DNA from: Coleofasciculus sp. B1-GNL1-01
GTDB taxonomy: Bacteria; Cyanobacteriota; Cyanobacteriia; Cyanobacteriales; Coleofasciculaceae
NCBI GenBank assembly: GCA_040220235.1
Contig: JAVJTO010000046.1
Strand: one strand, 5' to 3'
Length of the DNA stretch: 57,417 nucleotides
Below, one piece after another: positions 11,604 through 56,606 of this stretch. The notes beneath the pieces were generated by a model. That model saw nothing but the letters and a program-made list of their open reading frames with translations. It did no database searches and was not told where the DNA came from. The first letter of the stretch is position 1. Every line of letters begins with the position of its first letter. Both the position numbers and the translations under genes were made by a program.

Positions 11604-12716
11604 TTACCACATCATTACGGCTGTTTCTCCAGCGCGATCGCTATAGTAGAGACGGATACGTAATACATATCGACGCCCCCGAAATAACCTGACCTTAATC
11701 TCGGCATTATAGTCTTCGCCACTATCGTCATCCCCGGTAAGATAGCGAAGTTCACCATTGACCTCTTCAAATAGAATCATAACGGTATCCGATATACCAA
11801 AGGTGCGAATCGTATAGGATCGTGTCGCATCAGGTTCAATACGGAAGTTCATCTGTTCCCCAGGTGTGAGGGTTAAGGGAACTGATTGAAAGGGTTTTAG
11901 TTCGGTGTAATCTTTCTCGTCTAAGAGTGGATAAAACTGCTTGATCCACGTTTTATCCCGTTCTGATAACCCAGGTGCTGGAGTTAAACCATTCCGATAT
12001 TTTGGTGGTTCTTTAATTAAACCCGCACCAAAGGGATAGTGCATAATTGAGTCGGGGTCCCAGTTTGACCCTTGCACCGTATCCGGGTTAATTTTACGAA
12101 TGATATTGTAATAGGTGGTGTCCCGATCCCAATTATTCGGAGGTTCTGCGAGTGCAGCGTAAACGGCTTCTTCATCCCACACAATTCCAGCATTAGGGTT
12201 TTGGTGTTCGTGGGGAAATCCTAGAGTATGACCAATCTCATGTATGGCGGTGTCAATTTCTCCAGGATAGCGGGTTAAATCCCAACCAAAATTCATTGTC
12301 CGCTCATCTCGTCCAATATTGAGAACATCTCTGCCAACATAAGACCAAGCGCCATCTCCACGCTGGAAGCCAATCCGGATTTCGGCTTCGTCTGGTGAGT
12401 TCACTTCCTTGAATTCCAGTCCAATACCCACCTGCTTCCAGACATCAAAGGCTTTACGGACAACATTTTTTTCGGTCTCAGTCGTTGTCCAATAGGTTGG
12501 CTGATCGAAGAAATAATAATGTAAGATTGTGCCGTTCACCCATTTCTTATCCAGAAATTGGATCAGATTGGCACGATTGCGATCTACAATCCTTGACAAG
12601 TCACGCGGGGCAACTTCAGGGAGTGAGCAATAAGAATAGTTCCCTCCTTGATCAGCCAATATGGATGCCGCTGATTGCTCTTGTTCATTGAATGGGTTGG
12701 TATTTGATTGAACCAT
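11604..12716 (-). CDS. Metzincin (M12/astacin-like) zinc metallopeptidase with a C-terminal PPC-like domain
   Basis: HEIGHTLGFPHEH zinc motif, SIMHY Met-turn and C-terminal DT...LF...DDDSG domain. Confidence 0.88.
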   Translation of the reverse strand: MVQSNTNPFNEQEQSAASILADQGGNYSYCSLPEVAPRDLSRIVDRNRANLIQFLDKKWVNGTILHYYFFDQPTYWTTTETEKNVVRKAFDVWKQVGIGLEFKEVNSPDEAEIRIGFQRGDGAWSYVGRDVLNIGRDERTMNFGWDLTRYPGEIDTAIHEIGHTLGFPHEHQNPNAGIVWDEEAVYAALAEPPNNWDRDTTYYNIIRKINPDTVQGSNWDPDSIMHYPFGAGLIKEPPKYRNGLTPAPGLSERDKTWIKQFYPLLDEKDYTELKPFQSVPLTLTPGEQMNFRIEPDATRSYTIRTFGISDTVMILFEEVNGELRYLTGDDDSGEDYNAEIKVRLFRGRRYVLRIRLYYSDRAGETAVMMW

Positions 12717-22173: not shown

Positions 22174-23361
22174 ATGAAGGAAATGATCAAAAAATTATCG
22201 CAATTGCTGGCTTTAGGATTAGCTATCAGTTTAAATCCTTTCTCATTTCCTACTTTTAGACAGGCGGCGCTATCTCAATCAACTAATGAATTTAGAACCT
22301 TTATGGATTGGTGTCTCAATCAAGAGAAGCTCTCAAGAGGCGCTAAACATACTGTTCAGACTTTGCTCCGGTATGTCGAAACTAATGATTGTCAGCAAGC
22401 CGCTCAAGAAATCGCGATAATTTATGATCTCAATCTCGGCAGTAATAAAATAACAGATATCAGCCCCCTCTCCGGACTTAACAATCTTGCTGAACTTGAC
22501 CTCGGTAGTAATCAAATCAGAGATATCAGCCCTCTCTCGGAACTCACCAATCTTGCTGAACTTGACCTCGGTAGCAATCAAATTAGAGATATCAGCCCCC
22601 TCTCCGGACTCACCAATCTTGCTAAACTCGACCTCAGTGAGAATCAAATAACCGACATAAGCCCTCTCGCCGGACTCACCAATCTTGCTGAACTTGACCT
22701 TAGTTTCAATAAAATAACAAACATCAGCCCCCTCTCCAGACTCACCAATCTTGCTGAACTCGACCTCAGTGAGAATCAAATAAGAGATCTACGCCCCCTC
22801 GCCGGACTTACCAATCTTGCTGAACTCGATCTCAGGGGTAATAAAATAACAGATATAAGCCCTTTCTCCCGACTTGCCAATCTTGCTGAACTTGATCTCA
22901 GTGAGAATCAAATAAGAGATATAAGTCCTCTCTCCCGACTCACCAATCTTTCTGAACTCTACCTCTGGGATAATCAAATAAGAGATCTAAGCTCTCTTTC
23001 CGGACTTGCTAATCTTTCTGTACTTGACCTCAGTGAGAATCAAATAACTGATCTAAATTTCCCCTCCGGACTCACCAATCTTTCTCAACTCAACCTCAGT
23101 GGTAATCAAATAACAGATATAGATTCCCTCTCTAGATTTACCAATCTCTCTTCCCTCAATCTCCGTGATAATCAAATAACAGACATCAGCCCCATCGCCG
23201 AACTCACCAATCTTTCTTACCTCAATCTCCGGAATAATCAAATAACAGATGTAAGTTCCCTATCTGGACTGAACAATCTTTCTGGACTATCCCTAATGGG
23301 TAATCCACTTGCTGAATTAAAGTGTCCTGTAGAGCCAGAATCTATTTGTATCTTTAGATAA
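22174..23361 (+). CDS. Secreted internalin-type leucine-rich repeat protein, 13 full 22-aa repeats
   Basis: L..LDL..NQI.DISPL..LTN repeats (66-bp DNA units), signal peptide, Cys-containing N- and C-caps. Confidence 0.92.
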   Translation: MKEMIKKLSQLLALGLAISLNPFSFPTFRQAALSQSTNEFRTFMDWCLNQEKLSRGAKHTVQTLLRYVETNDCQQAAQEIAIIYDLNLGSNKITDISPLSGLNNLAELDLGSNQIRDISPLSELTNLAELDLGSNQIRDISPLSGLTNLAKLDLSENQITDISPLAGLTNLAELDLSFNKITNISPLSRLTNLAELDLSENQIRDLRPLAGLTNLAELDLRGNKITDISPFSRLANLAELDLSENQIRDISPLSRLTNLSELYLWDNQIRDLSSLSGLANLSVLDLSENQITDLNFPSGLTNLSQLNLSGNQITDIDSLSRFTNLSSLNLRDNQITDISPIAELTNLSYLNLRNNQITDVSSLSGLNNLSGLSLMGNPLAELKCPVEPESICIFR

Positions 23362-28486: not shown

Positions 28487-28597
28487 TATAGCAACCGCCA
28501 AGGCGGTTAGACAGATCATTGATGTAGAGAGACGGCATGGCGCGTCTCTACCCATGGAAATCGGGAATGTCCCTATATCTGGAAAAGAATGATTATA
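28487..28597. mobile_element. Degenerate TATAGCA-type MITE carrying a GTAGAGA REP palindrome (28524-28551)
   Basis: Left end TATAGCAACCGCCAAGGCGGTTAG matches the TIR of 44056-44149; right end degenerate. Confidence 0.5.
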
Positions 28598-28848: not shown

Positions 28849-31800
28849 ATGGCTCTGATGAACGTAAATATGATGAGTATGCGGTTGTGTTTGGTTAGTG
28901 GGTTAGTGATTAAGCTGGGCGTTGGTATCTTTTTCAACCCAGTGTCGGCTCAGATTATCCCAGATGCTACCTTGGGGAGTGAAGGATCTCGCTTTATCGA
29001 AAGTGTAGAGTTTGATCGGATTGAGGGTGGAGCAGCGCGAGGGGTCAATTTGTTCCACAGCTTTACTGAGTTTAACGTATTAGACGGACAACAGGTTTAT
29101 TTTGCTAATCCTGGCGGGATTGAGACTATCCTGAGCCGGGTGACAGGGGGGAATGGTTCGGATATTTTCGGAACGTTGGGGGTATTGGGAAATGCGAATT
29201 TATTTTTAGTTAATCCCAATGGGATTGTGTTTGGACCGAATGCGCGGCTGGATGTGGCGGGTTCGTTTGTGGCTTCGACGGGAAATGGGTTTAATTTCTC
29301 GGATGGGAGTAGTTTTAGTGCGACGAATCCCGAAGCGCCGCCGTTGTTGACGATGAATGTTACTCCGGGGTTGCAGTATGGAGCGAGTCAGCCTCAAGCT
29401 GAGATTATTAATCAGGGAAATTTAAGGGTAGGGCAAGATCTTACTTTAGTCGGGAATCGTCTCAGGTTATCGGGTCAGCTAGAAGCGGGGAGGGATTTAA
29501 CCCTGTTGGCAACGGATACGGTAGAGATTCGAGATAGTGTGAGTAATCCGTTCATTGCTAAGGCGAGTGGTGAATTGATTGTGCAGGGGAATGAGACAGT
29601 TGATATTTTTGCCTTGAATCATCCCGATAGTGGGTTGTTTTCCGGTGGGGATATGGTGCTGCGTTCCGCTAATCCTGTAGGTGGCGATGCTCATTACTGG
29701 AGTGGGGGGAGTTTTCGGATTGAGCAGTTGGATAGTAGTCTGGGGAATTTGTCAAGTCCTAATGATCCGGTGATTCGGGCGAGTGGGGATGTTAGTTTTG
29801 ATAGTTATGAGGGGGCTTCCTTACATATTTTTGCGGGTGGTAGCGTCACGGTTGAAGATAATATCACGATTAATGATGTGGACGCTGAGAATGGAATTGT
29901 AGAGACAGTTACTCTCTCTGATGGGACAACTGTGGAAGTTGATGGTAAGAATGAACCGACGCTGGATATTCGCGCGGGAACAATTGCGTTTGGGACTCCT
30001 GGAAATCCTGACAATGTTAACGTTAATAATCCTCCAGGTATTAACGGAACTGGGACAAGCGCGGATATTAACATTGGCAATATTAATATCAACGAGTCCG
30101 ATGGTCTCGTCTTATTAACTAATCAGTACAACCCCAATACCTTACCTGGAAATATTACCGTTGATTCAATTAGTACCAGTAGTTCTTCAGGGAATAGCGG
30201 CTCAATATGGATCGACTCTCGCGGCGATATTACACTCAACAAATCGATAGATTCCTCTATAGAGGAATCTATCGATAACGCCCTTGATAGTGAACTTTTC
30301 CTATTCGACAGCAAGGGTAACTTACTGACGGAAAATGATGATTCTTCGACGGCATTAGGTGAAGGGGGAAGCACTAGCGGTTTAGACTCTTATATTGATT
30401 ACACCTTCAATCAAAATGGAGAATATATTATTGGAGTGGGACAATTTCCATCAGAGGGCACGCAAGGGGGAGAAATGCCAATATCAGGTACTCCACTCAC
30501 AGGAAATTCAAAGTATACTCTCCAGGTTTCGATTGAAAATCATGCTCAAGGTTCAGGCGGCAGTTTAACAGAAAGTGAGCCAAATAACTCTATCCAAGAA
30601 GCACAGAAACTAGATTCATCCTTTTTACTCCAAGAGAATCCAAATGTTGAGTCATCTGATACAATTCCCCATGTATCCATTGATGGTACTGGAGATAATA
30701 CGTTTGACTACTACTCCTTTGAAGTTAAAACACCAGGGAGTCGAGGGATTTTCGATATTGACGACGACAACACTAGCGGTGGGAATGCTGGAAATATTAC
30801 CATTAATGCAGCGGGTTCTGTCTTGCTTAAGGGGAGTAGCATTTCCGCTTCTTCGTCGCGTAGAGTAGGCAACGGTGGTAATATTGCGATCGCAGCAGGT
30901 AACTCTGTCCGCTTAACAGAGGGAGCCACCTTAGAAGCTCAAACCAATGGTAGCGGAAATGCTGGAAGCGTTGTAGTGCAAGCACTGAACGGGGGTTCCG
31001 TTTCTTTAGAGAACAGCCGAATTTCAACATCTGTGCAAAAAGGGGCAAGTGGTGATGGTGACAATATTCGGATTGAAGCTGGGTCAGTCTCTTTAAGCGA
31101 TAAGGCTTCTATAGAAGCTATAAATAACGGTTCTGGCGTTGGCGGTAACATAGACATTACCGCTAACACTGAGTCAGTTAACTTAACTGATAACGCTCAA
31201 ATCAATGCTAGTACTTTCGGTCAGGGAAAAGGAGGCAGCGTAACTATAAGGGCAATAAGCGGTTCCGTTGCGATCGCGAACAGCAGCAACATTAGCACCA
31301 CTGTAGAATTAGGCGCAACTGGGTCTGGTGGCAGCATCAACATTACAGCAGGAGCGGTTTCACTGACAGGAGGTTCTCGACTCGAAGCGCAAACTCGCGG
31401 ACAAGGAAATGCTGGCGATATCCAAATCAGTGCCTCAGATAAGGTGGAAATCTCCGGCACGAGTCAATTTGGACTATCGAGCGGATTGTTAACCTCTACT
31501 GAAACTGCAAATAGCGGTGAGGGCGGTAGTATTTCCGTTAGGGGACTGCCAAACGATCCGTTGGATATCTTGCGCGTATCTAACGGGGGCTTCTTAAGTT
31601 CTCGAACGAACAGCATATCTACTGGTGGCAGTATAACCGTTAATGTCAATCAACTGGAAGTGATGAATGGCGGACAACTCATCACCTCTGCCTTCAGCAG
31701 TGGAGACGCTGGTAATATTACGGTTAATGCCGCTCAAAGCGTCCTCCTCTCCGGCAGTAATCCTAACTTTAAGGAGATTGGCGACAATATAACCGCAAAA

Positions 31801-33114
31801 GGTCGCGGTACGGTTGGCGAACAAGAGGGTAATGATTCAATTGATAAAGCCCAAGTTATCCCATTGGACAACTTCTCGCTGCAAGATAATGATGACATTG
31901 AATTCTCTAAGGATATTCCCCACATCTCTATCTCTGGCACTGGTGACGGCACCTTCGACTACTACTCCCTTGAAGTTAAAACACCAGGGAGTCGGGGGAT
32001 TTTCGATATTGACAACACTAGCGTTGATACTGAACTGTTCCTCTTCGACGAGTCAAGAAATTTGCTAGCAGAAAATGATGATTCTTTAACCTCATCGGGT
32101 GGAGGTGGCAGTAGCAGTGGGCTTGAATCGTATATCAGTTATACGTTTGCAACGCCTGCTACCTACATCCTCGGTGTTGGCAGATTCAATTCGGAAGCTA
32201 ACAATCGCACCATCGAAGGTGAGCCTCTAAAGGCAGGGGATAGCTATACACTCCAGCTATCGCTCGACAATCGCAATGTTAATCCTAATCAAAGCCCAAA
32301 CAGTGGTCTATTTGCTCAGTCTCAAGGAACAGGACAGGCAGGAAGTATAGAAATTACCGCCAACCAAGTCTTGCTCGACAACCAGGGAGAACTTAACGCT
32401 CGCTCCAAATCAGGTACAGGTGGCAACATTAACCTACAGGTAAACGATGTATTGTTGATGCGTAACAACAGCCTGATATCTGCCACAGCAGGTAATAACG
32501 GCGATGGCGGCAACATTAATATTAATGCTGGATTTATTGTTGCTGTTCCTTCCGAAAATAGCGACATCATAGCCAACGCCTTTCAGGGAAGTGGGGGACA
32601 AATCAACATCCAAGCCAATCGTGTATTTGGTTTCAATCTGCGGCGAGAACGGCTTTCTGTGGAAACTCTTCGTAACAATCGCACTAACGACATTAGCGCT
32701 AGTTCTGAATCGGGTCCTCAAGGAAACATTAACATCCAAGCTCTTACCACCGACCCCAGCCAGGAACTAATCGAACTCCCCACCGACACCGCCGCCCCCC
32801 AACTCGACCAAACCTGCTCCCCAACCGGAAGCGGTAAGAATGAATTTACCGTAACTGGACGCGACGGACTCCCCCCTAGCCCCACCGATATTCTCACCCC
32901 AGAACAACCGCTAGCCGACTTAGGCACACCCATCAATAACACCGCCACCCAGCCAACCCCAACCCCAACTCCCCCCGCTTCCCCCAAACCCATCGTAGAA
33001 GCCCAAGGCTGGATTATTGACGAACAAGGTAACATTACCCTCGTCGCCAATGTCCCAACCGCCAATTCCCAGGGAGCATGGCAACCTCAAGTATCCTGTC
33101 AGGGAGGGCGCTAA
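28849..33114 (+). CDS. Filamentous haemagglutinin-family (TpsA-like) exoprotein with two inserted PPC/DVUA0089-like modules
   Basis: Signal peptide ending AQIIPD; NLFHSFTEFN...ILSRVTGG...NLFLVNPNGIVFG haemagglutination-activity domain; G.AG.I.I.A beta-helix repeats; cyanobacterial C-terminus TGR.GLPP.P...EAQGW. Confidence 0.92.
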   Translation: MALMNVNMMSMRLCLVSGLVIKLGVGIFFNPVSAQIIPDATLGSEGSRFIESVEFDRIEGGAARGVNLFHSFTEFNVLDGQQVYFANPGGIETILSRVTGGNGSDIFGTLGVLGNANLFLVNPNGIVFGPNARLDVAGSFVASTGNGFNFSDGSSFSATNPEAPPLLTMNVTPGLQYGASQPQAEIINQGNLRVGQDLTLVGNRLRLSGQLEAGRDLTLLATDTVEIRDSVSNPFIAKASGELIVQGNETVDIFALNHPDSGLFSGGDMVLRSANPVGGDAHYWSGGSFRIEQLDSSLGNLSSPNDPVIRASGDVSFDSYEGASLHIFAGGSVTVEDNITINDVDAENGIVETVTLSDGTTVEVDGKNEPTLDIRAGTIAFGTPGNPDNVNVNNPPGINGTGTSADINIGNININESDGLVLLTNQYNPNTLPGNITVDSISTSSSSGNSGSIWIDSRGDITLNKSIDSSIEESIDNALDSELFLFDSKGNLLTENDDSSTALGEGGSTSGLDSYIDYTFNQNGEYIIGVGQFPSEGTQGGEMPISGTPLTGNSKYTLQVSIENHAQGSGGSLTESEPNNSIQEAQKLDSSFLLQENPNVESSDTIPHVSIDGTGDNTFDYYSFEVKTPGSRGIFDIDDDNTSGGNAGNITINAAGSVLLKGSSISASSSRRVGNGGNIAIAAGNSVRLTEGATLEAQTNGSGNAGSVVVQALNGGSVSLENSRISTSVQKGASGDGDNIRIEAGSVSLSDKASIEAINNGSGVGGNIDITANTESVNLTDNAQINASTFGQGKGGSVTIRAISGSVAIANSSNISTTVELGATGSGGSINITAGAVSLTGGSRLEAQTRGQGNAGDIQISASDKVEISGTSQFGLSSGLLTSTETANSGEGGSISVRGLPNDPLDILRVSNGGFLSSRTNSISTGGSITVNVNQLEVMNGGQLITSAFSSGDAGNITVNAAQSVLLSGSNPNFKEIGDNITAKGRGTVGEQEGNDSIDKAQVIPLDNFSLQDNDDIEFSKDIPHISISGTGDGTFDYYSLEVKTPGSRGIFDIDNTSVDTELFLFDESRNLLAENDDSLTSSGGGGSSSGLESYISYTFATPATYILGVGRFNSEANNRTIEGEPLKAGDSYTLQLSLDNRNVNPNQSPNSGLFAQSQGTGQAGSIEITANQVLLDNQGELNARSKSGTGGNINLQVNDVLLMRNNSLISATAGNNGDGGNININAGFIVAVPSENSDIIANAFQGSGGQINIQANRVFGFNLRRERLSVETLRNNRTNDISASSESGPQGNINIQALTTDPSQELIELPTDTAAPQLDQTCSPTGSGKNEFTVTGRDGLPPSPTDILTPEQPLADLGTPINNTATQPTPTPTPPASPKPIVEAQGWIIDEQGNITLVANVPTANSQGAWQPQVSCQGGR

Positions 33115-33144
33115 TGTAGAGACGCGCCATGGCGCGTCTCTACA
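33115..33144. repeat. Perfect 30-bp REP palindrome TGTAGAGACGCGCCATGGCGCGTCTCTACA
   Basis: Read directly; related copies at 25649, 28524, 42218 and 45943. Confidence 0.95.
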
Positions 33145-33196
33145 GGATAGGCAGTTAGAATAGACGCCAACCAACCTGCAAAACCCGACAAAACCC

Positions 33197-33421
33197 ATGA
33201 ATTACCAAGACATCATCACCTTAGAATCGGGAAAACGTGGCGGTAAGCCCTGCATTCGAGGGATGCGAATCACCGTCTACGATATTTTAGAATACCTCGC
33301 ATCCGACATGAGTCAAGAGGAAATTCTAGAAGACTTTCCCTATCTGACTCAAACCGACATCCTCGCTTGTCTTTGGTTTGCTGCTCAACGCGAACGCCTT
33401 ACCGTTACCGTTCAACGGTGA
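33197..33421 (+). CDS. DUF433-family antitoxin
   Basis: GKRGGKPCIRGMRITVYDILEYLA...EEILEDFPYLT..DI.ACL signature. Confidence 0.92.
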   Translation: MNYQDIITLESGKRGGKPCIRGMRITVYDILEYLASDMSQEEILEDFPYLTQTDILACLWFAAQRERLTVTVQR

Positions 33422-33458
33422 AACGTCTCCTGTTCGATGGAAGGCAACTTGATATAAA

Positions 33459-36209
33459 ATGTCCAAATTCAAACCAACCCGCCGCCCAAAACTGCACAAA
33501 CTCCTGTGCTACGTTGGCATGGGTCTCAGTCTCACCCTGCTGAGATTCTACCTAGACTGGACACCCGCTACCGCCATTGTCCCCCAGACAGACACACTGA
33601 CACCCAATACAACTCATTTAACCTCTCCCCCAGCATCCCTGATTCCCCCCAACCCCCCTCGTTCCCTTGACTCACGGGATCTGGAAAACCTCTCTCCTGC
33701 AAGGAGAGAGGCTTTGAATCCTCCCCCCTTCCCTACCTCCAACAACGCCCTCACCCTCTTCCAACAAGGCAAAACCTACTATCAAGCTGGACAATTTGCC
33801 GCCGCCCTAGACGCTTGGCAACAAGCCGCTAATGCCTACCAAACTCAAGGAGAACCCCTCAACCAGGCAATGACATTCAGCAACCTGGCACTCGCCTATC
33901 AGGAATTGGCAGAATGGAATCAAGCCAATCACGCCATGGCTCAAAGCTTCGCCCTCCTAGACACCCTCCCCGCCAATACCCCAGAACATCTCCGGGTTCA
34001 GGCACAAGCCTTCAACACCCAAGGCACCCTGCAACTGGCTCAAGGACAACCCGAAGCCGCCCTGAAAACCTGGCAGCACGCCAGCCAACTCTACCGCCAA
34101 ATCCCCGACGAACCGGGCATCATTCGCAGCCAAATTAACCAAGCCCTCGCCCTGCGAGCCTTAGGGCTATACCGTCGCGCCCGCAACACCCTAGTGCAAC
34201 TCGAAACCACCTTACCAACCCAACCCAACAATCCTCTCAAAGCCGCCACTTACGCCAACTTAGGCAACCTACACCGCTCCCTCGGACATCCCCAAGACGC
34301 CCAAGAAACACTCCAGAAAAGCCTGGATATCGCCCGCACCCTCAACTCCCCCGCCGATATCAGCGCCGCCTTACTCGGCTTAGGCAACACCGCTCGTTCC
34401 CAAGACCAGAATGAGCAAGCCATCGACTACTATCAACAAGCCGCCGCCAGCGCCATTTCCCCCAATGCACAATTTGAAGCATCTGTCAATCAACTCGACC
34501 TACTCCTGGAAACCAACCAAAGGCAACCCGCCACTACCTTAATCCCCCAACTCCAGGAACTCGCCCAAAACCTACCCACCACTCGCCCCGCCATCTATGC
34601 CCAAATCCACTTTGCCCAAACCCTCACCCACCATCAAACCCAACTGAAATCCACCCTATCTGCCCAAGAAATCGCCCAGATTCTCGCCCACGCCCAACAG
34701 CAGGCACAATATCTCAACGACACCGTAGCCGAATCCTATGCCCTCGGCTACCTGGGACACCTCTACGAAACCGCTCAACAATGGCAGGACGCCGAAACCC
34801 TCACCCGACAAGCCTTGGCACAGGCAAAAAACACCCCAGAAGTCGCCTATCACTGGCAGTGGCAACTGGGACGACTCTTAAAAGCACAGCATCAACTCCA
34901 AGCCGCCACCAACGCCTACACCAGCGCCTATAAAACCCTGAAACTCCTGCGAGGAGACTTGGTTGCTGCCAACCCCGATATCAAATTTACGTTCCGAGAC
35001 GAAGTTGAACCCGTCTATCGGGATCTCGTAGACTTACTCCTGTCCGGAACCAGCGAACCTAGCCAAGATAACCTGAAACAAGCCCGTGAGGTGATGGAGA
35101 CATTACAGGTGGCAGAACTAGAAAACTTCTTTCAATCCGCCTGTTTGGATTCAACGGTACAAGTTGACCAAGTAGTCGATGAAAAAGACCCAACGGCTGC
35201 CATTATTTACCCGATTGTACTGGAAGACCGCATCGAAGTCATCCTCAAGTTACCGGACGAAGCCAATCTGATTCATTATCGCTCCCCTGACTTTGACTTA
35301 TCCCGGAAAAAGGTGGAAACCACTGTAAAACGATTCCGCAGCAATCTCCAAGATCCTTTCACCCACCCAGCTATCAAAGAGGATGGGCAAACCCTCTACA
35401 ACTGGTTAATCAAACCAGCACGCCCTTACCTGGAACGCCATGGGATTAAAACCCTAATTTTTGTCCTGGATGAACCCCTGCGGAACATTCCCATGGCAGC
35501 GCTTTACGACGGGGAAAAATATCTGGTTCAAACCTATGCCACTGCCCTATTAATGGGGCTAGAAGTGCGGGATTCCCATCGGCTAGAGCGAAACCGGATG
35601 GATGTACTCGCCGCCAGTCTAACTGAACCGCCGCCACAGGTGGGTAACTTCGCCACGTTAGTCAATGCCAATCCCGAGTTAGACAAAATCAAAGCCGCAG
35701 GCATTCCCGTTACCTTCATCCGAGACGAAGATTTCACCGAAACCGCATTAGAACAACGCCTAGAGCGCTCTCATTTCGACATCGTACACCTAGCCACTCA
35801 CGGTCAATTTGGCGACAAACCAGAAGACACCTTTATTCTCGCCGCTGACACGAAGATCCTCTTAAACCAATTCAGCCAATTATTTCGCCGCCAACAGTCC
35901 ACCACAACCCAAGGGATTGAACTCCTCCTGCTCAGTGCCTGCCGCACCGCCACAGGCAGCAATCGAGCCGTACTGGGAATTGCCGGAGCCGCGATTCAGG
36001 CAGGAACAAAAAGTGCGATCGCGTCTCTCTGGAGTTTGGATGATCTCTCCAGTGTTACCTTCACCGAAGCCTTCTACCAACACTTAGGACAACCGGGAGT
36101 GTCTCGCGCCGAAGCCCTACGACGAGCGCAGCAGGCGATGTTACAAGATGCCAACTACCAAGCCCCCCTCTTCTGGGCTGCCTATGTCTTAGTGGGCAGT
36201 TGGTTTTGA
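33459..36209 (+). CDS. TPR-CHAT domain protein (caspase-like C14-clan protease), probably exported
   Basis: N-terminal signal-like segment, many TPRs, and CHAT motifs LRNIPMAAL, HLATHG (His), LLLSAC (Cys), ASLWS and WAAYVLVG.W. Confidence 0.93.
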   Translation: MSKFKPTRRPKLHKLLCYVGMGLSLTLLRFYLDWTPATAIVPQTDTLTPNTTHLTSPPASLIPPNPPRSLDSRDLENLSPARREALNPPPFPTSNNALTLFQQGKTYYQAGQFAAALDAWQQAANAYQTQGEPLNQAMTFSNLALAYQELAEWNQANHAMAQSFALLDTLPANTPEHLRVQAQAFNTQGTLQLAQGQPEAALKTWQHASQLYRQIPDEPGIIRSQINQALALRALGLYRRARNTLVQLETTLPTQPNNPLKAATYANLGNLHRSLGHPQDAQETLQKSLDIARTLNSPADISAALLGLGNTARSQDQNEQAIDYYQQAAASAISPNAQFEASVNQLDLLLETNQRQPATTLIPQLQELAQNLPTTRPAIYAQIHFAQTLTHHQTQLKSTLSAQEIAQILAHAQQQAQYLNDTVAESYALGYLGHLYETAQQWQDAETLTRQALAQAKNTPEVAYHWQWQLGRLLKAQHQLQAATNAYTSAYKTLKLLRGDLVAANPDIKFTFRDEVEPVYRDLVDLLLSGTSEPSQDNLKQAREVMETLQVAELENFFQSACLDSTVQVDQVVDEKDPTAAIIYPIVLEDRIEVILKLPDEANLIHYRSPDFDLSRKKVETTVKRFRSNLQDPFTHPAIKEDGQTLYNWLIKPARPYLERHGIKTLIFVLDEPLRNIPMAALYDGEKYLVQTYATALLMGLEVRDSHRLERNRMDVLAASLTEPPPQVGNFATLVNANPELDKIKAAGIPVTFIRDEDFTETALEQRLERSHFDIVHLATHGQFGDKPEDTFILAADTKILLNQFSQLFRRQQSTTTQGIELLLLSACRTATGSNRAVLGIAGAAIQAGTKSAIASLWSLDDLSSVTFTEAFYQHLGQPGVSRAEALRRAQQAMLQDANYQAPLFWAAYVLVGSWF

Positions 36210-36235
36210 GTGATGAGCCTTAGGTTCGGTGATCG

Positions 36236-36496
36236 CTATTTTGAGCCTAATAGCTTGTCATATTCCGCGTGTGTTCCGATCCAAAACCAAACTAGATCAT
36301 TATCCTGCTTGACTGCAATCGCTCTGTAGTTTAAACCGACTCTAACCGACCAAAACCGACCAACTTTCTTCAAATGTAGTGAGGGATATCGAGGATCTTG
36401 TTTGAGCAGCTTGTAACATCTATCGGCAAGGTCTTGGATGTCAGCGGGTAGCTGTCGATAATAATACCAAAAATCGGGGGTGGCGCGGTGTTTCAC
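36236..36496 (-). CDS. RelE/ParE-superfamily toxin
   Basis: FW..Y.QLP..IQ..A...Y.LL..DPRYPSLHLKKV...WSVRVGLNYRA...WFWIGTHAEYD; 4-nt overlap with the upstream gene. Confidence 0.85.
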   Translation of the reverse strand: MKHRATPDFWYYYRQLPADIQDLADRCYKLLKQDPRYPSLHLKKVGRFWSVRVGLNYRAIAVKQDNDLVWFWIGTHAEYDKLLGSK

Positions 36497-36699
36497 AAAT
36501 CAGTACATTTTCCTTTTCGTAAATCTTGTAAGGCTTTGTCGGCTAGTGCATCGAGCCTACCCGCCGCAACATCTGTCTCAAATTGCCGATCCCAATTGAT
36601 TGCATCAAATTCAGCAAACCAAGTCCTAAATTTTACCAGATCTTCATCCGAAAGCTGACTGATCGCCAGTTCAATTTTCCTTAAGTCACTCTTAGTCAT
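36493..36699 (-). CDS. Putative cognate antitoxin
   Basis: 68 aa; IE.AI.QLS.E....FR.WF.EFD...WDRQ.E.D...GRLD pattern; translationally coupled to the toxin. Confidence 0.8.
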   Translation of the reverse strand: MTKSDLRKIELAISQLSDEDLVKFRTWFAEFDAINWDRQFETDVAAGRLDALADKALQDLRKGKCTDL

Positions 36700-36789
36700 A
36701 AGCCCTATTTTTTTATAAATCTTCTTAAATTATAGGGGTTGCCACTAAGGTTAGGACATCGTGAACGGCTGAAATCGAACTCAGGTTAA

Positions 36790-37560
36790 CTAATCCGAGC
36801 TTGTTTCTGCTAAAGGATTAAGTTGAGTGACAGCCGCATCAGCAACGCCTTCTAGCTTAAAATAGCCCAACAAACTCATCCAAGGCTCTGCATGGACAGA
36901 GCGATGCCAAGCTAACTGCGTCAGCGCTTCCTGAGAAATACCATGGTCTAAATACGCCCGATATTGCTCAGATTCAGGTAAAGTTTCTAACTGCCGAACC
37001 AATTCAGAACTCGCTTCCACCCGTTCCACCCAACCACTAACCCATGGGTTTCTTGAGCGTTCCTGCTCATCGCATAGGACTTGGAAAAACCAATTGTACC
37101 GTTTGCCCACTTCTAAAGGCGGTTCAGTCTCCGGCAATTTCACGCTAACAATCCCCGGCGCATCTGGTAACGCCATCGTTTGGTCGAGGACAAGCCGTTG
37201 ATTTTCATCAAATAGCACGAATCTTGCTTTTGTAATCGTCTCCGAATGATCCAAAGGTAGGTAAAACCAAAGAGTAGGATAGGCAGAAACAGTTGTCCCC
37301 AAATTGTCCGCCGAAACTAGAGCCGTTAACGGCTGGCTAGTCACAGAGACACAGAATTCATCCCGCATCGCTGTACCCCGGGCTCGCCCCGAAGCCCTCC
37401 CTTGTTTGCGCTCCCGGCGAAACAAATTCACAATCCGCTCTCCCACCGATTGCGCCTGGGCTGGGGGATTGTCGAAGGGTAGCACCGACAGGAACAGCAC
37501 TGTACTTAAGGTCAAAATCAGGACGCTTTTGCGATCGCGTGATAACCAGCTCATCTCCAT
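36790..37560 (-). CDS. DUF928 domain protein (secreted/periplasmic)
   Basis: Signal peptide; LTALV....GTTVSAYPTLWFYLP...PGIVSV.LP....PLEVGK.YNW.F...C...V.GWVERV signature. Confidence 0.88.
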   Translation of the reverse strand: MEMSWLSRDRKSVLILTLSTVLFLSVLPFDNPPAQAQSVGERIVNLFRRERKQGRASGRARGTAMRDEFCVSVTSQPLTALVSADNLGTTVSAYPTLWFYLPLDHSETITKARFVLFDENQRLVLDQTMALPDAPGIVSVKLPETEPPLEVGKRYNWFFQVLCDEQERSRNPWVSGWVERVEASSELVRQLETLPESEQYRAYLDHGISQEALTQLAWHRSVHAEPWMSLLGYFKLEGVADAAVTQLNPLAETSSD

Positions 37561-37584
37561 TAACTCCTAACTCTGCATTGATGT

Positions 37585-40500
37585 CTAAGCTTGTCGCCGC
37601 CGATAGGTCAGATAACCCACACCGCCTCCAGTCACCACGATGGCAATCGCCGACGGTACCAACGGCACCCAAACGCCTTGGCTGACCAGAATCAGGTAGC
37701 ATAAACCATACAAACCGACCACTGTACCCACAGCACCAGCAGCCCCTTGCGCCAACGAGCGAGAACAGAACCAGATAACCAAACCTCCAACGGTAGACCA
37801 GCCAAAAATCCACAATGTTTCGCCCCAAAGCGGTAACCACCAAATTAAAGGACGCTGATCTAATACCGCACTGATAAGTTGGCTTGCCATCTGAGCTTGC
37901 ACCATCACTCCCGGCATATTACCGTAAGGAGTATTCCAAAGGTCAGCCCTTATATCTGCCGTGTCCGTGTAACCAATAATCACAATCCGGTCTTGAATGT
38001 CTGCGGCAGATACCTTGCCATTGAGAACATCTTCTAGGCTAACCGTTGGCGCAAACTTGTTGGGGTCACCTTGGTGGGCGCGGTAATTGAGTAAAGTTTG
38101 ATAACTTTCTAGTTGATCATTTCTACCTAGGTAAGGACTACCATTTCCCCAAAGTTCCGGGATTGCCGTCTCGCCAAACTGCATATCTCGCACATAGTAC
38201 CCTTCACTATTGAGGGGAGAGGTATAAGAAATCCCTTCTGCTTCCAGATACTTACGAGCCAGAACTAAGTTCAATGCCTCTGGCGTGTTGCAAAACCTTG
38301 GGTCGGGTTCCTGCAAGAGCAAGTGACGGCGCAACATCATCTCACCATCCTCAGAGGCATCATTAAATCCAATACGCTCCATCGGAACTTCACTGGGGGG
38401 AGGAATACCCGGTCTCGGATTGCCCTGTTCATCGTCATAACTCGCTTTACAAAGCGCAATCAGGTTCTGCGTTTGCCGGAAACGTTTCGCTAACTCTGGC
38501 TGTGCCTGAAAATCTCGGTAAAAATCTAAGCCAATCAGTCGGGGTTGATGTGCCGATAACTTAGCTAAAACCTCATCTAAAGCTTTGTCAGGGATTGTGC
38601 CAATTCCCGGCTGATAACGCCCCTCAATTATGTCTTGCCGGAGTGCCTCACTACTGGCAGCATCCACCTCGACGATTAAAAAACGCTGATCTTGAGGTTC
38701 ACTGGGACGTAACCGCATTAACTGATCATAGACTCTCAGTTCAGCCGACTCCATCCCACCCAAAAACCGAGCCACAACCACCAGCACCGAAACGAAAGCA
38801 CTCGTCAACACCACCGAACGCCGCTTAATTTTGCGATAGGGCAGTTCTCGGCTAGCTTTAATATAGTCTAGTTGTAGCGCCGTGGGCTTCGGTTGCTTGT
38901 CGGCTGATTCCTGTAACCATTGCTTAGAGGCGACTAAATCTTTCCCTCGCAGCAAAAAGCTATCATCCTGTCCCTTTTGTGTCCACTCCATCGCCTTCAC
39001 CAGCAGCCGAGTGTGAGTGCGTGTATAGTCCGGATCACTATCTAGCGTCCGGATTAATTCGCCAAAATTGGGTAAAAATTCACCGCCGTGTTTACGGAAA
39101 TCAATCCAGTGGGCGTTCTCTAAAGCCAAGGGAAGTTCGGCTGTGGCTGTTTCTTGATGCAAGATGGCAACCGTTCGTTTATTCAGCGTCTGGGCATAAG
39201 CTAACTCCTTAGCCACATCAGCATCGTTAACAAAAGGAAGAGAAATCACCGCGACAATTGTATTAGCTCGTTCAATACCCTTAACCCGTTCAATACCCTG
39301 ATCAATGACTAGCTGCAAGGCAATGCTGTCACTTCCTGAAGCTCTATCCTGGGGCAAGTCCGCTTGGGTAGAAATACTTTCCTGGTCAAACCACGTCGTT
39401 TTACCCTGCATCTGCAACGCATCATTCAGCTTACGCACAAAGTCTGAGTCAGCATCAGAATAGGAAATAAACACATCATGGGACACTTCCGGCGGCTGTC
39501 GCAGACTTTCAGTGATAAATTCTTCGTGCCAAGCTGTTGGCTGATGTTGAGTCCTCTTTTTCGCCACCTGCAACCAAGCTTCAGCACGGCGCAGATTATA
39601 CCCCCGCAGTAAAATACTGGGGTTGCGGTTCTGCTGCTGCCACTTGAGCGCCTTAGCTAAGAAAATCTTATGCTCGTGGTAGTATACTGCCTCGTGATCC
39701 AGTATGTTGATCAGTTGGCTTTCATCAAGACGGTAATCTTCTTCGTGTAGATTATCAGTCAGATCAATATAATGTAACGAGCGCAATTCTGGCGGGATTT
39801 GCTCCGGCTCAACAGGACTCACCAGCACAGGGATAATCCGCTTATTCAGCGCTAAAGCATAGTTTAATTCTTGCTGACAGTAGGTGGAGTTCAAGGAGTC
39901 AGGTGAGAGCAAATAGACTAAGTTATCTGCTTGGGCTACACCCTGCTTAATCGCTGCCTCAAAGGTTTCCCCTGTTTGAATATCAGCGGTATTCGTCCAA
40001 ACTGTAAATCCTGCACGCCACAGACTGGTGCGAATCTGCCGCATCACTGCCTCATTTTCGTAGGCATAGGAGAGGAACACCTGAGTCATCAGGTTATAAG
40101 CATTTTTGATACTTTCGCTGATAAACTCACAGTGTAAATCTGTGGGAGTACAGGGGGGCTGCTCGTCTTTAAAGCGCACCTTCAGCCATGCTTCGGCTTG
40201 CTTTCGTTCCTCACCAATGAGTAAATCTTGTGATCTCTTGTGCTGCCGTTCCCAGGCTAGGGCTTTATCTAAGAAATACGTGTGCTGATGTACGTAATCC
40301 TTGTGCCTTGCGAATAGTTCTAGTAATCCGGAGAACGACTGCTCAAAGTCGTCAATTCCCTCACGAAAATACACCCAATTAATTTTGCCAATTGCCGGAT
40401 GCATATTGGGAAAGCTGGAATGCAGTCCCTTTGCTTGGTAAGCATCCCAGTCAGCATCCGTTCCTTGGGGATTCCGTTGTTGCCAGGTATCACGACTAAT

Positions 40501-40803
40501 CTGTTCGACGTGCAGCAACGGGATAATCCGCTTGTGGTACTTAATTGCCAGTTCGATTTCTTTACGGCAGTAGGCGGAGTTGATCGAATGGGGAGCAATG
40601 ATGAACAGGAAGTTATCCGCCTTCTCAATCCCATCATCAATTTGGTTTTGAAAATCTACGCCCAGAGGAATATTTTCAAAGTCAAACCAAATTTTTAAGC
40701 CGTACTCAGTCAGGTGTTGATAGAGCTTTATGGCAAAGGCTTTACTATCGGCTCTTCCATAGGAAATAAAGCCATTGTCAAAGCCGGGACGCGGTTCATA
40801 CAT
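37585..40803 (-). CDS. Triple-TIR / CHASE2 membrane protein
   Basis: Three TIR units (FISYGRAD..SAYCRKEI; FLSYAYEN..STYCQQEL; FISYSDAD..DVAKEL); TM at about aa 663-682; CHASE2 (ELRVYDQLMRLRP, IGLDFYRD, IGFND, RIVIIG, PGVMVQAQM.SQL); three C-terminal TMs. Confidence 0.9.
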   Translation of the reverse strand: MYEPRPGFDNGFISYGRADSKAFAIKLYQHLTEYGLKIWFDFENIPLGVDFQNQIDDGIEKADNFLFIIAPHSINSAYCRKEIELAIKYHKRIIPLLHVEQISRDTWQQRNPQGTDADWDAYQAKGLHSSFPNMHPAIGKINWVYFREGIDDFEQSFSGLLELFARHKDYVHQHTYFLDKALAWERQHKRSQDLLIGEERKQAEAWLKVRFKDEQPPCTPTDLHCEFISESIKNAYNLMTQVFLSYAYENEAVMRQIRTSLWRAGFTVWTNTADIQTGETFEAAIKQGVAQADNLVYLLSPDSLNSTYCQQELNYALALNKRIIPVLVSPVEPEQIPPELRSLHYIDLTDNLHEEDYRLDESQLINILDHEAVYYHEHKIFLAKALKWQQQNRNPSILLRGYNLRRAEAWLQVAKKRTQHQPTAWHEEFITESLRQPPEVSHDVFISYSDADSDFVRKLNDALQMQGKTTWFDQESISTQADLPQDRASGSDSIALQLVIDQGIERVKGIERANTIVAVISLPFVNDADVAKELAYAQTLNKRTVAILHQETATAELPLALENAHWIDFRKHGGEFLPNFGELIRTLDSDPDYTRTHTRLLVKAMEWTQKGQDDSFLLRGKDLVASKQWLQESADKQPKPTALQLDYIKASRELPYRKIKRRSVVLTSAFVSVLVVVARFLGGMESAELRVYDQLMRLRPSEPQDQRFLIVEVDAASSEALRQDIIEGRYQPGIGTIPDKALDEVLAKLSAHQPRLIGLDFYRDFQAQPELAKRFRQTQNLIALCKASYDDEQGNPRPGIPPPSEVPMERIGFNDASEDGEMMLRRHLLLQEPDPRFCNTPEALNLVLARKYLEAEGISYTSPLNSEGYYVRDMQFGETAIPELWGNGSPYLGRNDQLESYQTLLNYRAHQGDPNKFAPTVSLEDVLNGKVSAADIQDRIVIIGYTDTADIRADLWNTPYGNMPGVMVQAQMASQLISAVLDQRPLIWWLPLWGETLWIFGWSTVGGLVIWFCSRSLAQGAAGAVGTVVGLYGLCYLILVSQGVWVPLVPSAIAIVVTGGGVGYLTYRRRQA

Positions 40804-43473: not shown

Positions 43474-43971
43474 TTAGCGGTTTTCCTGGACAATCGCTTG
43501 CACAATATCAATGGCATCGGCTGGGGTGGCTGCTACAAAAACTGTCTCCGGCGACAGGCTGGTAAAAAACTGTTGACTTTCGTGATGGTCGGACAATAAT
43601 ACCACAGGTTTACCACCCTTGAGGGCAAGAGCGATTTCAGAGGCGGTTCCTGCACCAATACCACAAGCAATCACTACATCACTGGAGAGAACGTTAATAT
43701 TATTTCGTCCACTTCCCATATCTGTCGCGATCGCAATATCCACAGCATCGGACATATTCTGAGTATCGCTGCTGGGTAAGATGCCCACGGTTAAGCCATT
43801 TGCTGCTTTTGCACCTTGACTTGCTGCATTCATTACTCCAGCATTTCTACCACCTGTCAGCAGTACCCATCCCTGCTGGGCGATACGTTGTCCCAATTCA
43901 TAAGCTCGTTCTAAGTCGGTGGCGGTAGCCCCTTTACCGGGTCCCATCACGCCGACAACAATTTTTCTCAT
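43474..43971 (-). CDS. TIGR00725-family SLOG/LOG-like protein
   Basis: VGVMGPG, LLTGG..GVM.AAS.GA, RNNINV and GAGTASE motifs; ATG at 43971 chosen because the longer ORF runs through a MITE. Confidence 0.85.
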   Translation of the reverse strand: MRKIVVGVMGPGKGATATDLERAYELGQRIAQQGWVLLTGGRNAGVMNAASQGAKAANGLTVGILPSSDTQNMSDAVDIAIATDMGSGRNNINVLSSDVVIACGIGAGTASEIALALKGGKPVVLLSDHHESQQFFTSLSPETVFVAATPADAIDIVQAIVQENR

Positions 43972-44055
43972 GGGTAGAAAGTATAGTTGGCTGAATACTG
44001 GAGTTATATCATTTTGGATTGTTTGTGTAACACAATGTCCTGCTCTAATTAGGGT

Positions 44056-44149
44056 TATAGCAGTCGCTAGGGTCATTAGGACATAAAATGAATGCCGTGT
44101 ATTTTTTTGAGGCAAGTTTAGTGTCCTAACCGTTGTGGCGGTTGCTATA
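44056..44149. mobile_element. 94-bp MITE with 28-bp imperfect TIRs
   Basis: TATAGCAGTCGCTAGGGTCATTAGGACA versus reverse complement of right end TATAGCAACCGCCACAACGGTTAGGACA. Confidence 0.7.
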
Positions 44150-54964: not shown

Positions 54965-55196
54965 TTGACACTCCCCGGTCTCGCATACGCGGGGATTCTG
55001 CTGACAGAGTAGATTGTGGTAATTCCCACAATCTAACTCTCGCTACGGTAGTCAAACACCGTCTACCCAGTCGGTTTAGGTCAATGCCTAACTTTCTGGC
55101 TACTTTTCTTAAAATATTGGCACTGCCATTTAAATCGGCATTTACAATCGAGCCATTCCTATTACGATACAAACCACGCTTTACTCGTCTTCCTGG
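54965..55196 (-). mobile_element. tnpB: 3' remnant of tnpB plus IS200/IS605 right end
   Basis: GRRVKRGLYR...NADLNGSANILRK (RuvC-III), then the hairpin TCCCCG..CGGGGA and terminal TGTCAA. Confidence 0.85.
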
Positions 55197-55221
55197 TTAG
55201 GGTCGAGGGGAGTATTACTAC

Positions 55222-56606
55222 TGGACTTTTATCGCCTTTAACCTTTACAAAAGTGGTGCTACTGCTGCTAAATTCCTTATGTAAAAGTAACCGCAGGGGT
55301 TCGCGTCCCCTGTTCTTGGTTGCGAATACCCAGTTGTTGCCATTTATGGTTGTCCAGTATTTGGTATGACCATCGTTGATGTTTCCACAACGACGTTTTG
55401 CCCATCTACGAAGTTTCAGGTATGTTAGGTGGTCTTGTTTGGATAGTTCTCCAAATGTTTGGGCATCGGAGTTTGAGAAGTAAGAAGTCCATCCCCTTAT
55501 TACAGGGTTAAGGTCTTTAATCAGAGCCGCTTGGGGTGAAGACCTGTGTTTTCTGATGATTCTTCCGACCTGTTCCTGATGTGCCTTACTCGCCTTCTTT
55601 GATGGGGTGATGAGTGTATTGAAACCCAATATCCTACCTTGAGCGTTTCTGTTGCTCCGATATTTACCAGCCGGGTATTGCTGGATGTGATGACCTAGAA
55701 AGTCAAATCCAGCGAATCCATCCTCACTTAACTCCCGGTGGAGCGTATGAGTTAGCCTCGTCTTTTCAGGTTTTAATTCCAGACCAATGCCAGCTAACCA
55801 TTCCGATATTATGTCTCGGCATCTTTGGACAACGGACTTATCCTGATGAAGGACAACGAAATCGTCGGCGTATCGAATTAGATTAGGTGTTTTAAAATTA
55901 GTTCCCTTTTTATGGAACCAAGTTTCCCTCATGGTATGAGACATTTCGGGAAATTCTTTTCTAATTCGCTCTTCCAATCCGTGGAGGGCAATGTTAGCCA
56001 ATAGCGGGGAAAGAGCATCTTTAAATGGTTGATGCAATCGAAACACTTGGCTATGTCAGCATCTAGTACATACTTCGCCTTTGAGTGTAGACAGTTCTTA
56101 ATCTGTCTAATTGCATCGTGGCTTGACCTCCCTGGTCTAAAACCGTAGGAGTTAGGCTCGAATACCGCTTCCCACTCCGGTTCTAGTGCCGTCTTGATGA
56201 CTGCTTGTAAGGCTCGGTCGTACATTGTGGGTATTCCTAATGGTCGCTTCTCATCTTTTCCAGGTTTTGGTATCCATATCCTACGAGTGGGATAGGATTT
56301 TCCGGTTAATTTGAGTTGACTTGCTAGCTCAGAACGTGCTGCTGGGGACAGGGATTTTATTCCGTCCACTCCTGCCGTTTTCTTGCCAGTATTATCTTGT
56401 GTTACCCGTCGTACCGATAAGACCTTATTAGACCAAGACCTCATCAGCGTCTTTTGGAGTTTACGAACTCGCTTGACATCTCCGCGACGTGAAGCAGCGT
56501 AGATTCGCTTTTGTAACTTAAAGACATACCGTTCGGCTGTGTGCCAATTGATAGCCTTCCATCCCTCAGTATTCTGTTGTGAATCTGATTTAGGCTTATA
56601 CATCAC
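55222..56606 (-). pseudogene. ltrA: Group II intron reverse transcriptase/maturase, frameshifted and truncated
   Basis: RT0 VRRVTQDN.GKKTAGVDG, RPLGIPT..DRA.Q, SYGFRPGRS, DADIAKCFD, SPLLANIAL, RYADD, GFDFLG and domain X LNPVIRGW. The GTPQGG region is deleted near 56020, and the ORF is cut after VKVKGDKSP. Confidence 0.9.

Follow-up and report, generated by a model that had tools for sequence, protein, structure and literature searches.

What does a cyanobacterium sense when it joins TIR domains to a CHASE2 membrane receptor and encodes this receptor beside a secreted exoprotein, a CHAT protease and a DUF928 protein? Here we have analysed such a locus in a stretch of 57,417 nucleotides (hereafter the window) of Coleofasciculus sp. 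B1-GNL1-01 (GCA_040220235.1, JAVJTO010000046.1), which is contig C46 of a complete 8.66-Mb cyanobacterial assembly; its features are collected in Table 1. An original prediction, made from the sequence, had proposed a four-part proteolytic relay in which a TpsA (FHA-like) exoprotein is sensed or cleaved by the protease, with DUF928 as adaptor and the CHASE2 protein as receptor, ending in a TIR output. This proposal is partly supported: the linkage of the genes and the swapping of receptor outputs stand, whereas TpsA as a core component does not, and DUF928 as a plain adaptor and TIR as the end point look less likely. The locus is real and conserved, and no description of the unit turned up in the papers searched. 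It is very probable that CHAT, DUF928 and the receptor form one functional unit, and our preferred reading, to which we give a probability of roughly 0.4, is that this unit is a Thoeris-like alarm triggered from the envelope, outside-in, by an Arg-ended DUF928 peptide.

The case for a unit comes from the relatives of the receptor, whose family is widespread in cyanobacteria. A protein search returned 1222 of them, and the best 120 listed belong mostly to filamentous cyanobacterial genera where named, the closest named being Coleofasciculus records at 93-94% identity. CHASE2 was present in 115 of 122 proteins (these 120, the window protein and a paralogue), 78 of them with three TIRs, 35 with five and two with six. 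A genome scan then kept 76 loci from 397 matches, namely 36 TIR3-CHASE2 loci and 40 controls with the same TIR block and no CHASE2, mostly with WD40 (the controls include L039 and L040, broken orthologues of the window receptor). Using neighbour profiles built from this genome's paralogues, and with many loci ending at contig ends, we found DUF928 at 31 of the 36 receptor loci, CHAT at 25, TpsA at 21, TpsB at 16, and DUF928, CHAT and TpsA together at 16, as opposed to 1, 4, 2, 1 and 1 of the 40 controls; the predicted gene linkage is thus conserved in relatives. Of the five receptor loci in which DUF928 is missing, two stop less than 300 nucleotides (nt) from the receptor; in two others CHASE2 is divergent, and the fifth carries TPS-CHAT fusions and a TPR protein in its place. 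The 19 loci with wide flanks hold DUF928 in 17 and CHAT in 14. Trees were built from all genome paralogues and the TIR-locus sequences, with the window and L140 included, L066 dropped for its short domain and CHAT domains under 230 residues left out. All 33 DUF928 and all 37 CHASE2 sequences of TIR loci fell on one side of a branch (Shimodaira-Hasegawa-like approximate likelihood ratio test, 99) on which no genome paralogue lay, and 22 of 23 TIR-locus CHAT sequences did likewise, the exception being L047. Before it meets other paralogues, the window TpsA joins only 3 of 17 TIR-locus TpsAs in the N-terminal tree and 4 of 19 in the C-terminal one. Because the trees co-group CHAT, DUF928 and the receptor and do not co-group TpsA, the core unit is these three with TpsA exchangeable; the exoprotein, originally counted as one of four components, often adjoins them and is a loose part. 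Cultured strains of Nostoc, Anabaena and Calothrix carry intact versions on a single strand, and the TIR family is present in 47 of 301 genomes in the order.

The same genome repeats this arrangement with other outputs. Profiles matched 30 DUF928, 26 CHASE2, 72 CHAT, 47 TPS and 8 ShlB proteins; with genes less than 6 kb apart taken as one cluster, 11 clusters hold a TPS-only exoprotein, CHAT, DUF928 and CHASE2 (contigs C17, C29, C44, C46, C70, C71, C88, C108, C123, C134 and C164), and a twelfth module, on C109, has a TPS-CHAT fusion. As the same gene set recurs 12 times in the genome and around receptor relatives, its co-location is not chance. Scanning the genome's 25 other CHASE2 proteins, we found that the output domain is swapped among these paralogous modules, as the original prediction had asked: a cyclase on C29, C109, C134 and C164, PAS with cyclase on C70, AAA_35 with cyclase on C17, AAA_35 on C88 and C108, SpoIIE on C71, none recognised on C44 and C123, and TIR in the window only. 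TpsB lies inside two module clusters, C44 and C164. The sister receptors on C44 and C123 (L003 and L009) have a C-terminal part of about 300 residues without a Pfam match. Twelve paralogous modules with different outputs in one genome offer built-in cognate and non-cognate controls.

The predicted TIR-CHASE2 receptor proved to carry not one but three TIR modules, and these are N-terminal. They are followed by a transmembrane helix (662-684), CHASE2 and three C-terminal helices with almost no tail, so that the output sits at the N-terminus. The structural model places helices at 661-680, 992-1012, 1017-1042 and 1048-1071, one on the N-side and three on the C-side of CHASE2, at a mean predicted local distance difference test score (pLDDT) of 83 and a predicted template modelling score of 0.45, with unreliable domain packing. 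Among the 78 three-TIR CHASE2 proteins the catalytic Glu is kept in module 1 in 76 (the other two are gapped), in module 2 in 73 and in module 3 in 62. The nearest solved sequences to module 1 are Cat1, TcpB/BtpA-type TIRs, SARM1 and AbTir, the TIR folds match SARM1, AbTir and SPARTA TIRs, and Foldseek with the whole receptor returned TIR-type chains almost exclusively. Judged by these residues and relatives, the TIR modules would likely make an ADP-ribose (ADPR)-type signal from nicotinamide adenine dinucleotide (NAD+). The receptor matches Pfam TIR_2 and falls short of the curated ThsB/ThcB model of Thoeris (NF058526, 84 bits versus a cut-off of 220), and PADLOC ThsB profile matches were weak and covered single TIRs only. 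An origin of the inter-TIR spacer in STAND ATPases found no support: in this genome the spacer occurs only in the five TIR-module proteins, and an Atlas search for its origin returned only TIR clusters, under 0.9. Two genomes, at L142 and L143, have a receptor orthologue broken at an identical point (residue 695-696), in one case by an internal deletion and in the other at foreign-looking sequence near a contig end. A TIR x3-WD40 paralogue on C167 (L113:6494-10624; G000:C167), 62% identical over the TIR block, is convergent with an exported-type TPR-CHAT and a TpsA-like gene and is likely a cytoplasmic sensor feeding the same effector.

DUF928 supplies the candidate trigger. It consists of a clear signal peptide to about AQA36 (by hydropathy), a short helix, a flexible Gly/Arg segment and an Ig-like plus helical body; its model has a pLDDT of 85.7, falling below 50 at residues 51-67, which marks a disordered segment. 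At TIR loci this segment has the consensus SGRSRGGAxR-x(2-3)-C with R66 at least 90% conserved, and a small-residue-rich Arg-x(1-5)-Cys motif recurs in 20 of 29 DUF928 paralogues. With this conserved, disordered Gly/Arg segment ending in Arg, a role as peptide precursor or substrate seems to suit DUF928 better than that of the plain adaptor first proposed. The DUF928 on C71 (L005:2529-3878; G000:C71:101029-102378), beside a CHASE2-SpoIIE receptor, carries tandem Gly-rich peptides ending in Arg-Gly. Four tandem DUF928 genes stand at L031 (G000:C50:21698-25765), and no gene for CHASE2, CHAT or TpsA lies less than 6 kb from them. The candidate protease, CHAT (PF12770, E 3e-54, 185 bits), has the intact dyad that had been predicted, His781 in HLATHG and Cys828 in LSAC, and both motifs are present in 23 of 24 CHAT open reading frames (ORFs) from TIR loci. 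Its proposed preference for Arg at the P1 position is an analogy to HetF, which we take to belong to the CHAT-type protease family. According to the available text of PMC9457339, HetF of Anabaena PCC 7120 (the HetF-PatU3 system) cuts its substrate after Arg117; it is likewise a cyanobacterial protease that cuts after Arg, as proposed for the window CHAT, and differs in being a divisome protease with a cell-division substrate, not exported and with no CHASE2 link. A sequence search for a solved CHAT relative returned none, only TPR matches.

The output does not appear to stop at TIR. When unlabelled neighbours at the TIR loci were clustered, the top families were DUF4231/SLATT (25 loci) and LSDAT_prok (18 loci), LSDAT and SLATT having reportedly been named by Burroughs et al. 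in 2015. Many of the SLATT proteins carry a fused lysozyme, GH19 or C39 domain, and a further neighbour matches endolysins. LSDAT or SLATT occurs at 17 of the 36 receptor loci and 11 of the 40 control TIR3 loci, beside both CHASE2 and WD40 forms, so that the association goes with the TIR block, whatever its sensor. At L082, L085 and L090 all genes share one strand in the order TpsA-TpsB-CHAT-receptor-DUF928-LSDAT-SLATT, and DUF928 and LSDAT are 13-45 nt apart. Our genome has two three-TIR proteins (the window receptor and the WD40 protein on C167) and one LSDAT, followed by a SLATT-GH19, at C138:3903-6324. LSDAT is found in 9 of 9 TIR-family genomes versus 22 of 251 overall in a phylum sample, and in 38 of 47 TIR-family genomes versus 32 of 254 without the family in an order sample; in 12 of those 38 no more than 5 kb separates it from the TIR gene. 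These figures are descriptive and overstate independence, as the two samples and the loci set overlap and relatives are not independent. A relay ending at TIR is therefore probably not what the locus encodes, given that an LSDAT plus SLATT(-endolysin) pair travels with the TIR family.

This genome's LSDAT (PF18171, 240 bits) is homologous (E 9e-8) to MHR1/2 of human TRPM2, an ADPR-binding domain (available text of PMC13143021). With TRPM2 numbering counted from the alignment, it keeps M215 (as M88) and R358 (as R196) and has an aromatic residue, Trp143, in place of Y295, the Met, Trp and Arg each being present in 17 of 17 LSDAT homologues; roles in the TRPM2 ADPR site are given to M215, Y295, R302 and R358 in the available part of 10.64898/2026.03.30.715250. 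Unlike TRPM2, LSDAT stands alone with no channel and lacks R302, and its binding of ADPR is predicted from sequence. The SLATT protein scores above the NF033634 cut-off (97 bits versus 41) and matches endolysins. Directly upstream of this pair stands a gene for a 1060-residue protein with SLATT_1 and TPR-S/MAP3K_TRAF_bd (L118:409-3591; G000:C138), and a 786-residue TPR-S relative lies at the matching place in L131. At L121, L127 and L128 (with similar-sized genes in L133 and L135), TIR-less LSDAT-SLATT pairs lie beside NAD synthase or NAD(P)HX-repair genes. A LOG-family gene in the window (43474-44115, TIGR00725) was rejected as a SLOG partner, being a neighbour only in close relatives.

In the envelope alarm that we propose, an outside cue would act on TpsA, a variable antenna exported via a TpsB encoded elsewhere; the state of TpsA would be relayed through its Cys-bounded C-terminus to the TPR arm of CHAT, freeing the protease. 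Periplasmic CHAT would cut DUF928 after Arg66, and the Gly/Arg peptide set free in this way would bind CHASE2 and bring the TIRs together, upon which TIR modules 1 and 2 would turn NAD+ into an ADP-ribose-type signal. The TRPM2-like LSDAT may then read this signal and hand over to SLATT, whose pore, fused to an endolysin, would open and lyse the cell, such that the attacked cell of the filament is sacrificed. More tentatively, and in our view rather doubtful in its entirety, this could be a Toll-like bacterial pathway, running from a polymorphic filament through an exported protease and a DUF928 peptide hormone (the CHASE2 ligand) to a TIR receptor, an ADPR signal read by an ancestor-like TRPM2 domain, and a SLATT pore with endolysin that brings about self-lysis of one filament cell.

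Several findings weigh against the envelope alarm. On the input side, only the 20 of 29 DUF928 paralogues mentioned above fit the peptide motif; and of the three N-termini originally called signal-like, those of TpsA (clearly hydrophobic) and DUF928 are clear and that of the window CHAT is weak by hydropathy, with a 12-residue maximum of 1.68 versus 2.2-3.8 in most full-length orthologues. TpsA does not track the receptor in trees, its N-terminal tree requiring three changes. In the receptor, module 3 has lost its SPxSxxSPYC motif and gained an insertion of about 19 residues (pLDDT below 50), with Glu533 kept. Four same-genus genomes have a TIR1 match of at least 94%, and one of them (G471) is intact; in the other three the frame stays open for 696, 697 and 334 residues, and G333 has a deletion of receptor residues 696-920. 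Such broken orthologues fit either fast decay of a costly gene or assembly faults. Housekeeping genes surround the locus, which keeps a fixed site among close relatives and is not part of a defence island. On the output side, LSDAT and SLATT are not in the window and are unlinked to the receptor here, being on C138; 19 of the 36 receptor loci have neither in their available flanks; R302 of TRPM2 is not conserved; and hydropathy of the SLATT protein shows one of two expected helices. Nine of the 47 TIR-family genomes have no LSDAT match and 32 genomes have LSDAT without the TIR family, so that LSDAT may answer another enzyme, and several of 20 regions examined hold LSDAT-SLATT with no TIR gene nearby; it is possible that the 1060-residue SLATT/TPR-S protein is an alternative signal source or a second effector.

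A first alternative starts from TpsA. Beyond its TPS domain (PF05860, E 3e-48, 165 bits versus a cut-off of 33.5), the exoprotein has a predicted beta-helix with a hypervariable centre and a conserved C-terminal domain: against the TpsA of L038 it is 88-96% identical over residues 1-400, 19-31% over about 496-1218 and 95% near 1312-1411, so the centre is replaced even though the L038 receptor is 93% identical to ours. PPC-like insert 1 is a circular permutation of insert 2 (BLAST segments of 54% and 61% identity in swapped order), and lies just under the Pfam PPC cut-off at E 5e-5; among the genome's other TpsAs, only those on C134 and C29 carry similar inserts, as does that of L037. Cys1323 and Cys1417 are the sole cysteines of the mature chain, and the motif C...TGRGG(L/I)P...C is found in most TPS-only paralogues and the listed TIR-locus TpsAs, making the C-terminal domain, by analogy, a candidate periplasmic hook and alternative cleavage site. 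The hook idea is taken from what is reported of CdrA/HMW1. In Pseudomonas CdrA/CdrB, a TpsA with a C-terminal cysteine pair, CdrA, is reportedly shed by the periplasmic protease LapG; the likeness lies in that Cys pair joined to a periplasmic protease, the difference in that LapG is of another protease class and controlled from inside the cell, while here the flow appears to be outside-in. CHAT might thus cut the TpsA C-terminal domain at TGR(D/G)G and shed the filament, with CHASE2 reading the fragment and DUF928 serving as co-receptor or inhibitor. The conserved C-terminal motif favours this adhesin release, as do TpsA-CHAT neighbours even without CHASE2 (twice on C47, and on C82 and C142), the many TPS-CHAT fusions, and contigs that join the TpsA stop to the CHAT start. 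We consider it unlikely as the main story, TpsA being the least and DUF928 the most closely tied to the receptor, and the tandem Arg-ended repeats of the C71 DUF928 finding no explanation; adhesin release and the DUF928-peptide reading can, however, both hold.

No ShlB/TpsB match lies anywhere on the window contig, in agreement with the original prediction, and eight lie on the genome's other contigs; TpsA would be exported via one encoded elsewhere and act as an exchangeable, variable antenna. Kin recognition by contact-dependent growth inhibition (CdiA/CdiB/CdiI) was rejected: the TpsA C-terminus is conserved and its centre variable, no toxin or pre-toxin Pfam match was found in it, the next gene is DUF433, and there is no immunity gene downstream.

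A second alternative places the effect in the TIR block itself, by bulk NAD+ depletion leading to dormancy, or as a scaffold, with LSDAT and SLATT belonging to a separate signalling system. Its nearest solved relatives include the NAD-depleting TIRs Cat1, SARM1 and AbTir, three or five tandem TIRs could self-assemble, and the 32 LSDAT genomes without the TIR family, the nine family genomes without LSDAT and the unlinked pair here all speak for it. This seems as improbable to us as adhesin release, given that 12 of the 38 genomes with both have LSDAT at most 5 kb from the TIR gene, and that it stands beside CHASE2 and WD40 forms alike.

The third alternative leaves DUF928 uncut. Its best fold match is MtxA (PDB 4Z29; Z 8.9, root-mean-square deviation 3.7, 143 residues aligned, 13% identity; next match Z 6.9), with no match between the two at sequence level and no solved DUF928 or CHASE2 relatives by sequence search. 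In the available text of PMC4439547, the mtxA gene precedes a CHASE2 cyclase in magnetotactic bacteria, and so there too an exported Ig-like plus helical protein is encoded beside a CHASE2 receptor; MtxA is described in that text without TIR output, phenotype or ligand, and the resemblance is at fold level only. DUF928 might then act in the periplasm as a binding partner resembling MtxA and offer CHASE2 a ligand that is small or comes from the surface, with TpsA-CHAT a separate secretion unit, in line with DUF928-CHASE2 pairs without CHAT in this genome (C83, C102:205298) and with the lack of CHAT in the available DNA of 11 of the 36 TIR loci. We hold this for improbable, as TIR-locus CHAT forms its own group across genera, which would be unexpected under loose neighbourhood.

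Least likely by some distance is that the same chain serves development, as programmed single-cell lysis to break filaments (necridia, hormogonium release): the fixed chromosomal site among housekeeping genes, wall hydrolases as effectors and matches in cyanobacterial, mostly filamentous genera where named would suit it, whereas the patchy range (47/301 genomes in the order), the orthologue broken in 3 of the 4 same-genus genomes that have it and the hypervariable TpsA are more in keeping with a conflict system than with a core developmental one.

An ORF and Pfam check placed the four genes at the positions and on the strands first assigned to them. The proposed layout of two pairs needs one amendment: the genes are present as stated and are not contiguous, as a DUF433 gene and a ParE-like pair intervene (Table 1). 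Both were rejected as parts of the system, DUF433 as a strain-specific insertion missing in near relatives and the toxin pair as an insertion missing or replaced in them. Contigs from all four public runs join 33112 to 33458, skipping DUF433, so that in related strains TpsA runs directly into CHAT, and at L037 a Uma2 gene occupies the place of the ParE-like pair. The four RNA-library runs, available as contigs, cover all 30 bins including intergenic ones and so give no sign of transcription either way; their low depth over the TpsA centre (31463-32676) agrees with its variability and is no proof of it. A repeat search found only the PPC-like duplication and a common palindrome, with nothing else structured; a copy of a 30-nt palindromic repeat stands on either side of the TpsA gene (28522-28551 and 33114-33143). 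Elsewhere in the window are an ORF of 785 residues (33-2390) that matches a non-specific endonuclease (Endonuclea_NS_2, E 4e-7) and has a coiled-coil stretch, an astacin/matrixin-like metalloprotease (11604-12716), an internalin-like leucine-rich repeat protein (22174-23361), and a group II intron reverse transcriptase/maturase split across two ORFs (55162-56606).

Table 1. Features of the TIR-CHASE2 locus, in window coordinates.
Feature	Positions	Strand	Remarks
TpsA/FHA-like exoprotein, 1421 residues	28849..33114	+	Pfam TPS 34-290; TIGR01901
PPC-like insert 1 of TpsA, residues 478-639	30280..30765	+	
PPC-like insert 2 of TpsA, residues 991-1141	31819..32271	+	
TpsA C-terminal domain	32815..33099	+	Cys1323/Cys1417 around FTVTGRDGLP (Arg1338)
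DUF433 gene	33197..33421	+	Pfam DUF433 E 8e-24; between TpsA and CHAT
TPR-CHAT (clan CD) protease, 916 residues, predicted exported	33459..36209	+	TPR repeats; CHAT 641-914
ParE-like toxin	36236-36496	-	Pfam ParE_like E 3e-8; between CHAT and DUF928
Putative antitoxin, 68 residues, beside ParE-like toxin	36493-36699	-	Pair spans 36236..36699
DUF928 protein, 256 residues	36790..37560	-	Pfam DUF928 E 6e-48
DUF928 residues 51-67 (...GRASGRARGTAMR66-D)	37360..37410	-	Candidate peptide ligand, candidate CHAT cleavage site
Receptor, TIR x3 - transmembrane helix - CHASE2 - three transmembrane helices, 1072 residues	37585..40803	-	
CHASE2 periplasmic sensor domain, residues 673-1008	37780..38787	-	Pfam E 2e-59; PF05226 202 bits
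TIR module 3, Glu533	38842..39483	-	Degenerate
TIR module 2, Glu312	39496..40089	-	
TIR module 1 (TIR + helical spacer), catalytic Glu82	40096..40773	-	Best conserved

To our knowledge, the bacterial TIR signalling systems described so far are interpreted as detecting phage from within the cell; if the envelope alarm is true, this would be a TIR system cued from outside via a protease step and a membrane receptor. It would also name candidates for several questions: the CHASE2 ligand, the roles of DUF928 and exported CHAT, and the molecule sensed by the bacterial TRPM-type SLOG. We found no paper on the TpsA-CHAT-DUF928-TIR-CHASE2 unit, although Burroughs 2015 or the Thoeris supplements may list TIR-LSDAT-SLATT neighbourhoods, and none on DUF928 with CHAT; in the available text of PMC5587647 DUF928 appears in passing, and in that of PMC8195603 CHASE2 and TIR domains appear together only with CHASE2 as a caspase fusion partner.

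The closest known system on the output side is Thoeris. In the available text of a recent preprint (10.64898/2025.12.03.692087), type I links TIR to SLOG, type III joins several TIR proteins to a SLOG effector, and type VII links TIR to the SLATT protein ThsH, signalling by cyclic ADPR; the terms CHASE and WD40 were not found in its main text. As in Thoeris, TIRs with a catalytic Glu are linked to SLOG and SLATT genes in the window's TIR family. The present system differs in having three tandem TIRs on a four-helix membrane receptor with a periplasmic CHASE2, along with CHAT, DUF928 and TpsA genes, and in that its SLOG is a stand-alone TRPM-type LSDAT and its SLATT is often endolysin-fused. 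By the Thoeris operon rule an effector gene lies beside the TIR gene, an arrangement seen at 17 of the 36 related loci and not at this one. On the input side, the NsrA - CyaK/CyaD1/CyaD2 - Clr system of Sinorhizobium meliloti likewise relies on CHASE2 receptors that are activated when a protein cue is detected at the outer membrane, and differs in its cyclase output and beta-barrel sensor, with no TpsA, CHAT, DUF928 or TIR described in the available text (PMC13001267). By analogy, then, the output side of the locus may work like Thoeris and its input side like NsrA-CyaK.

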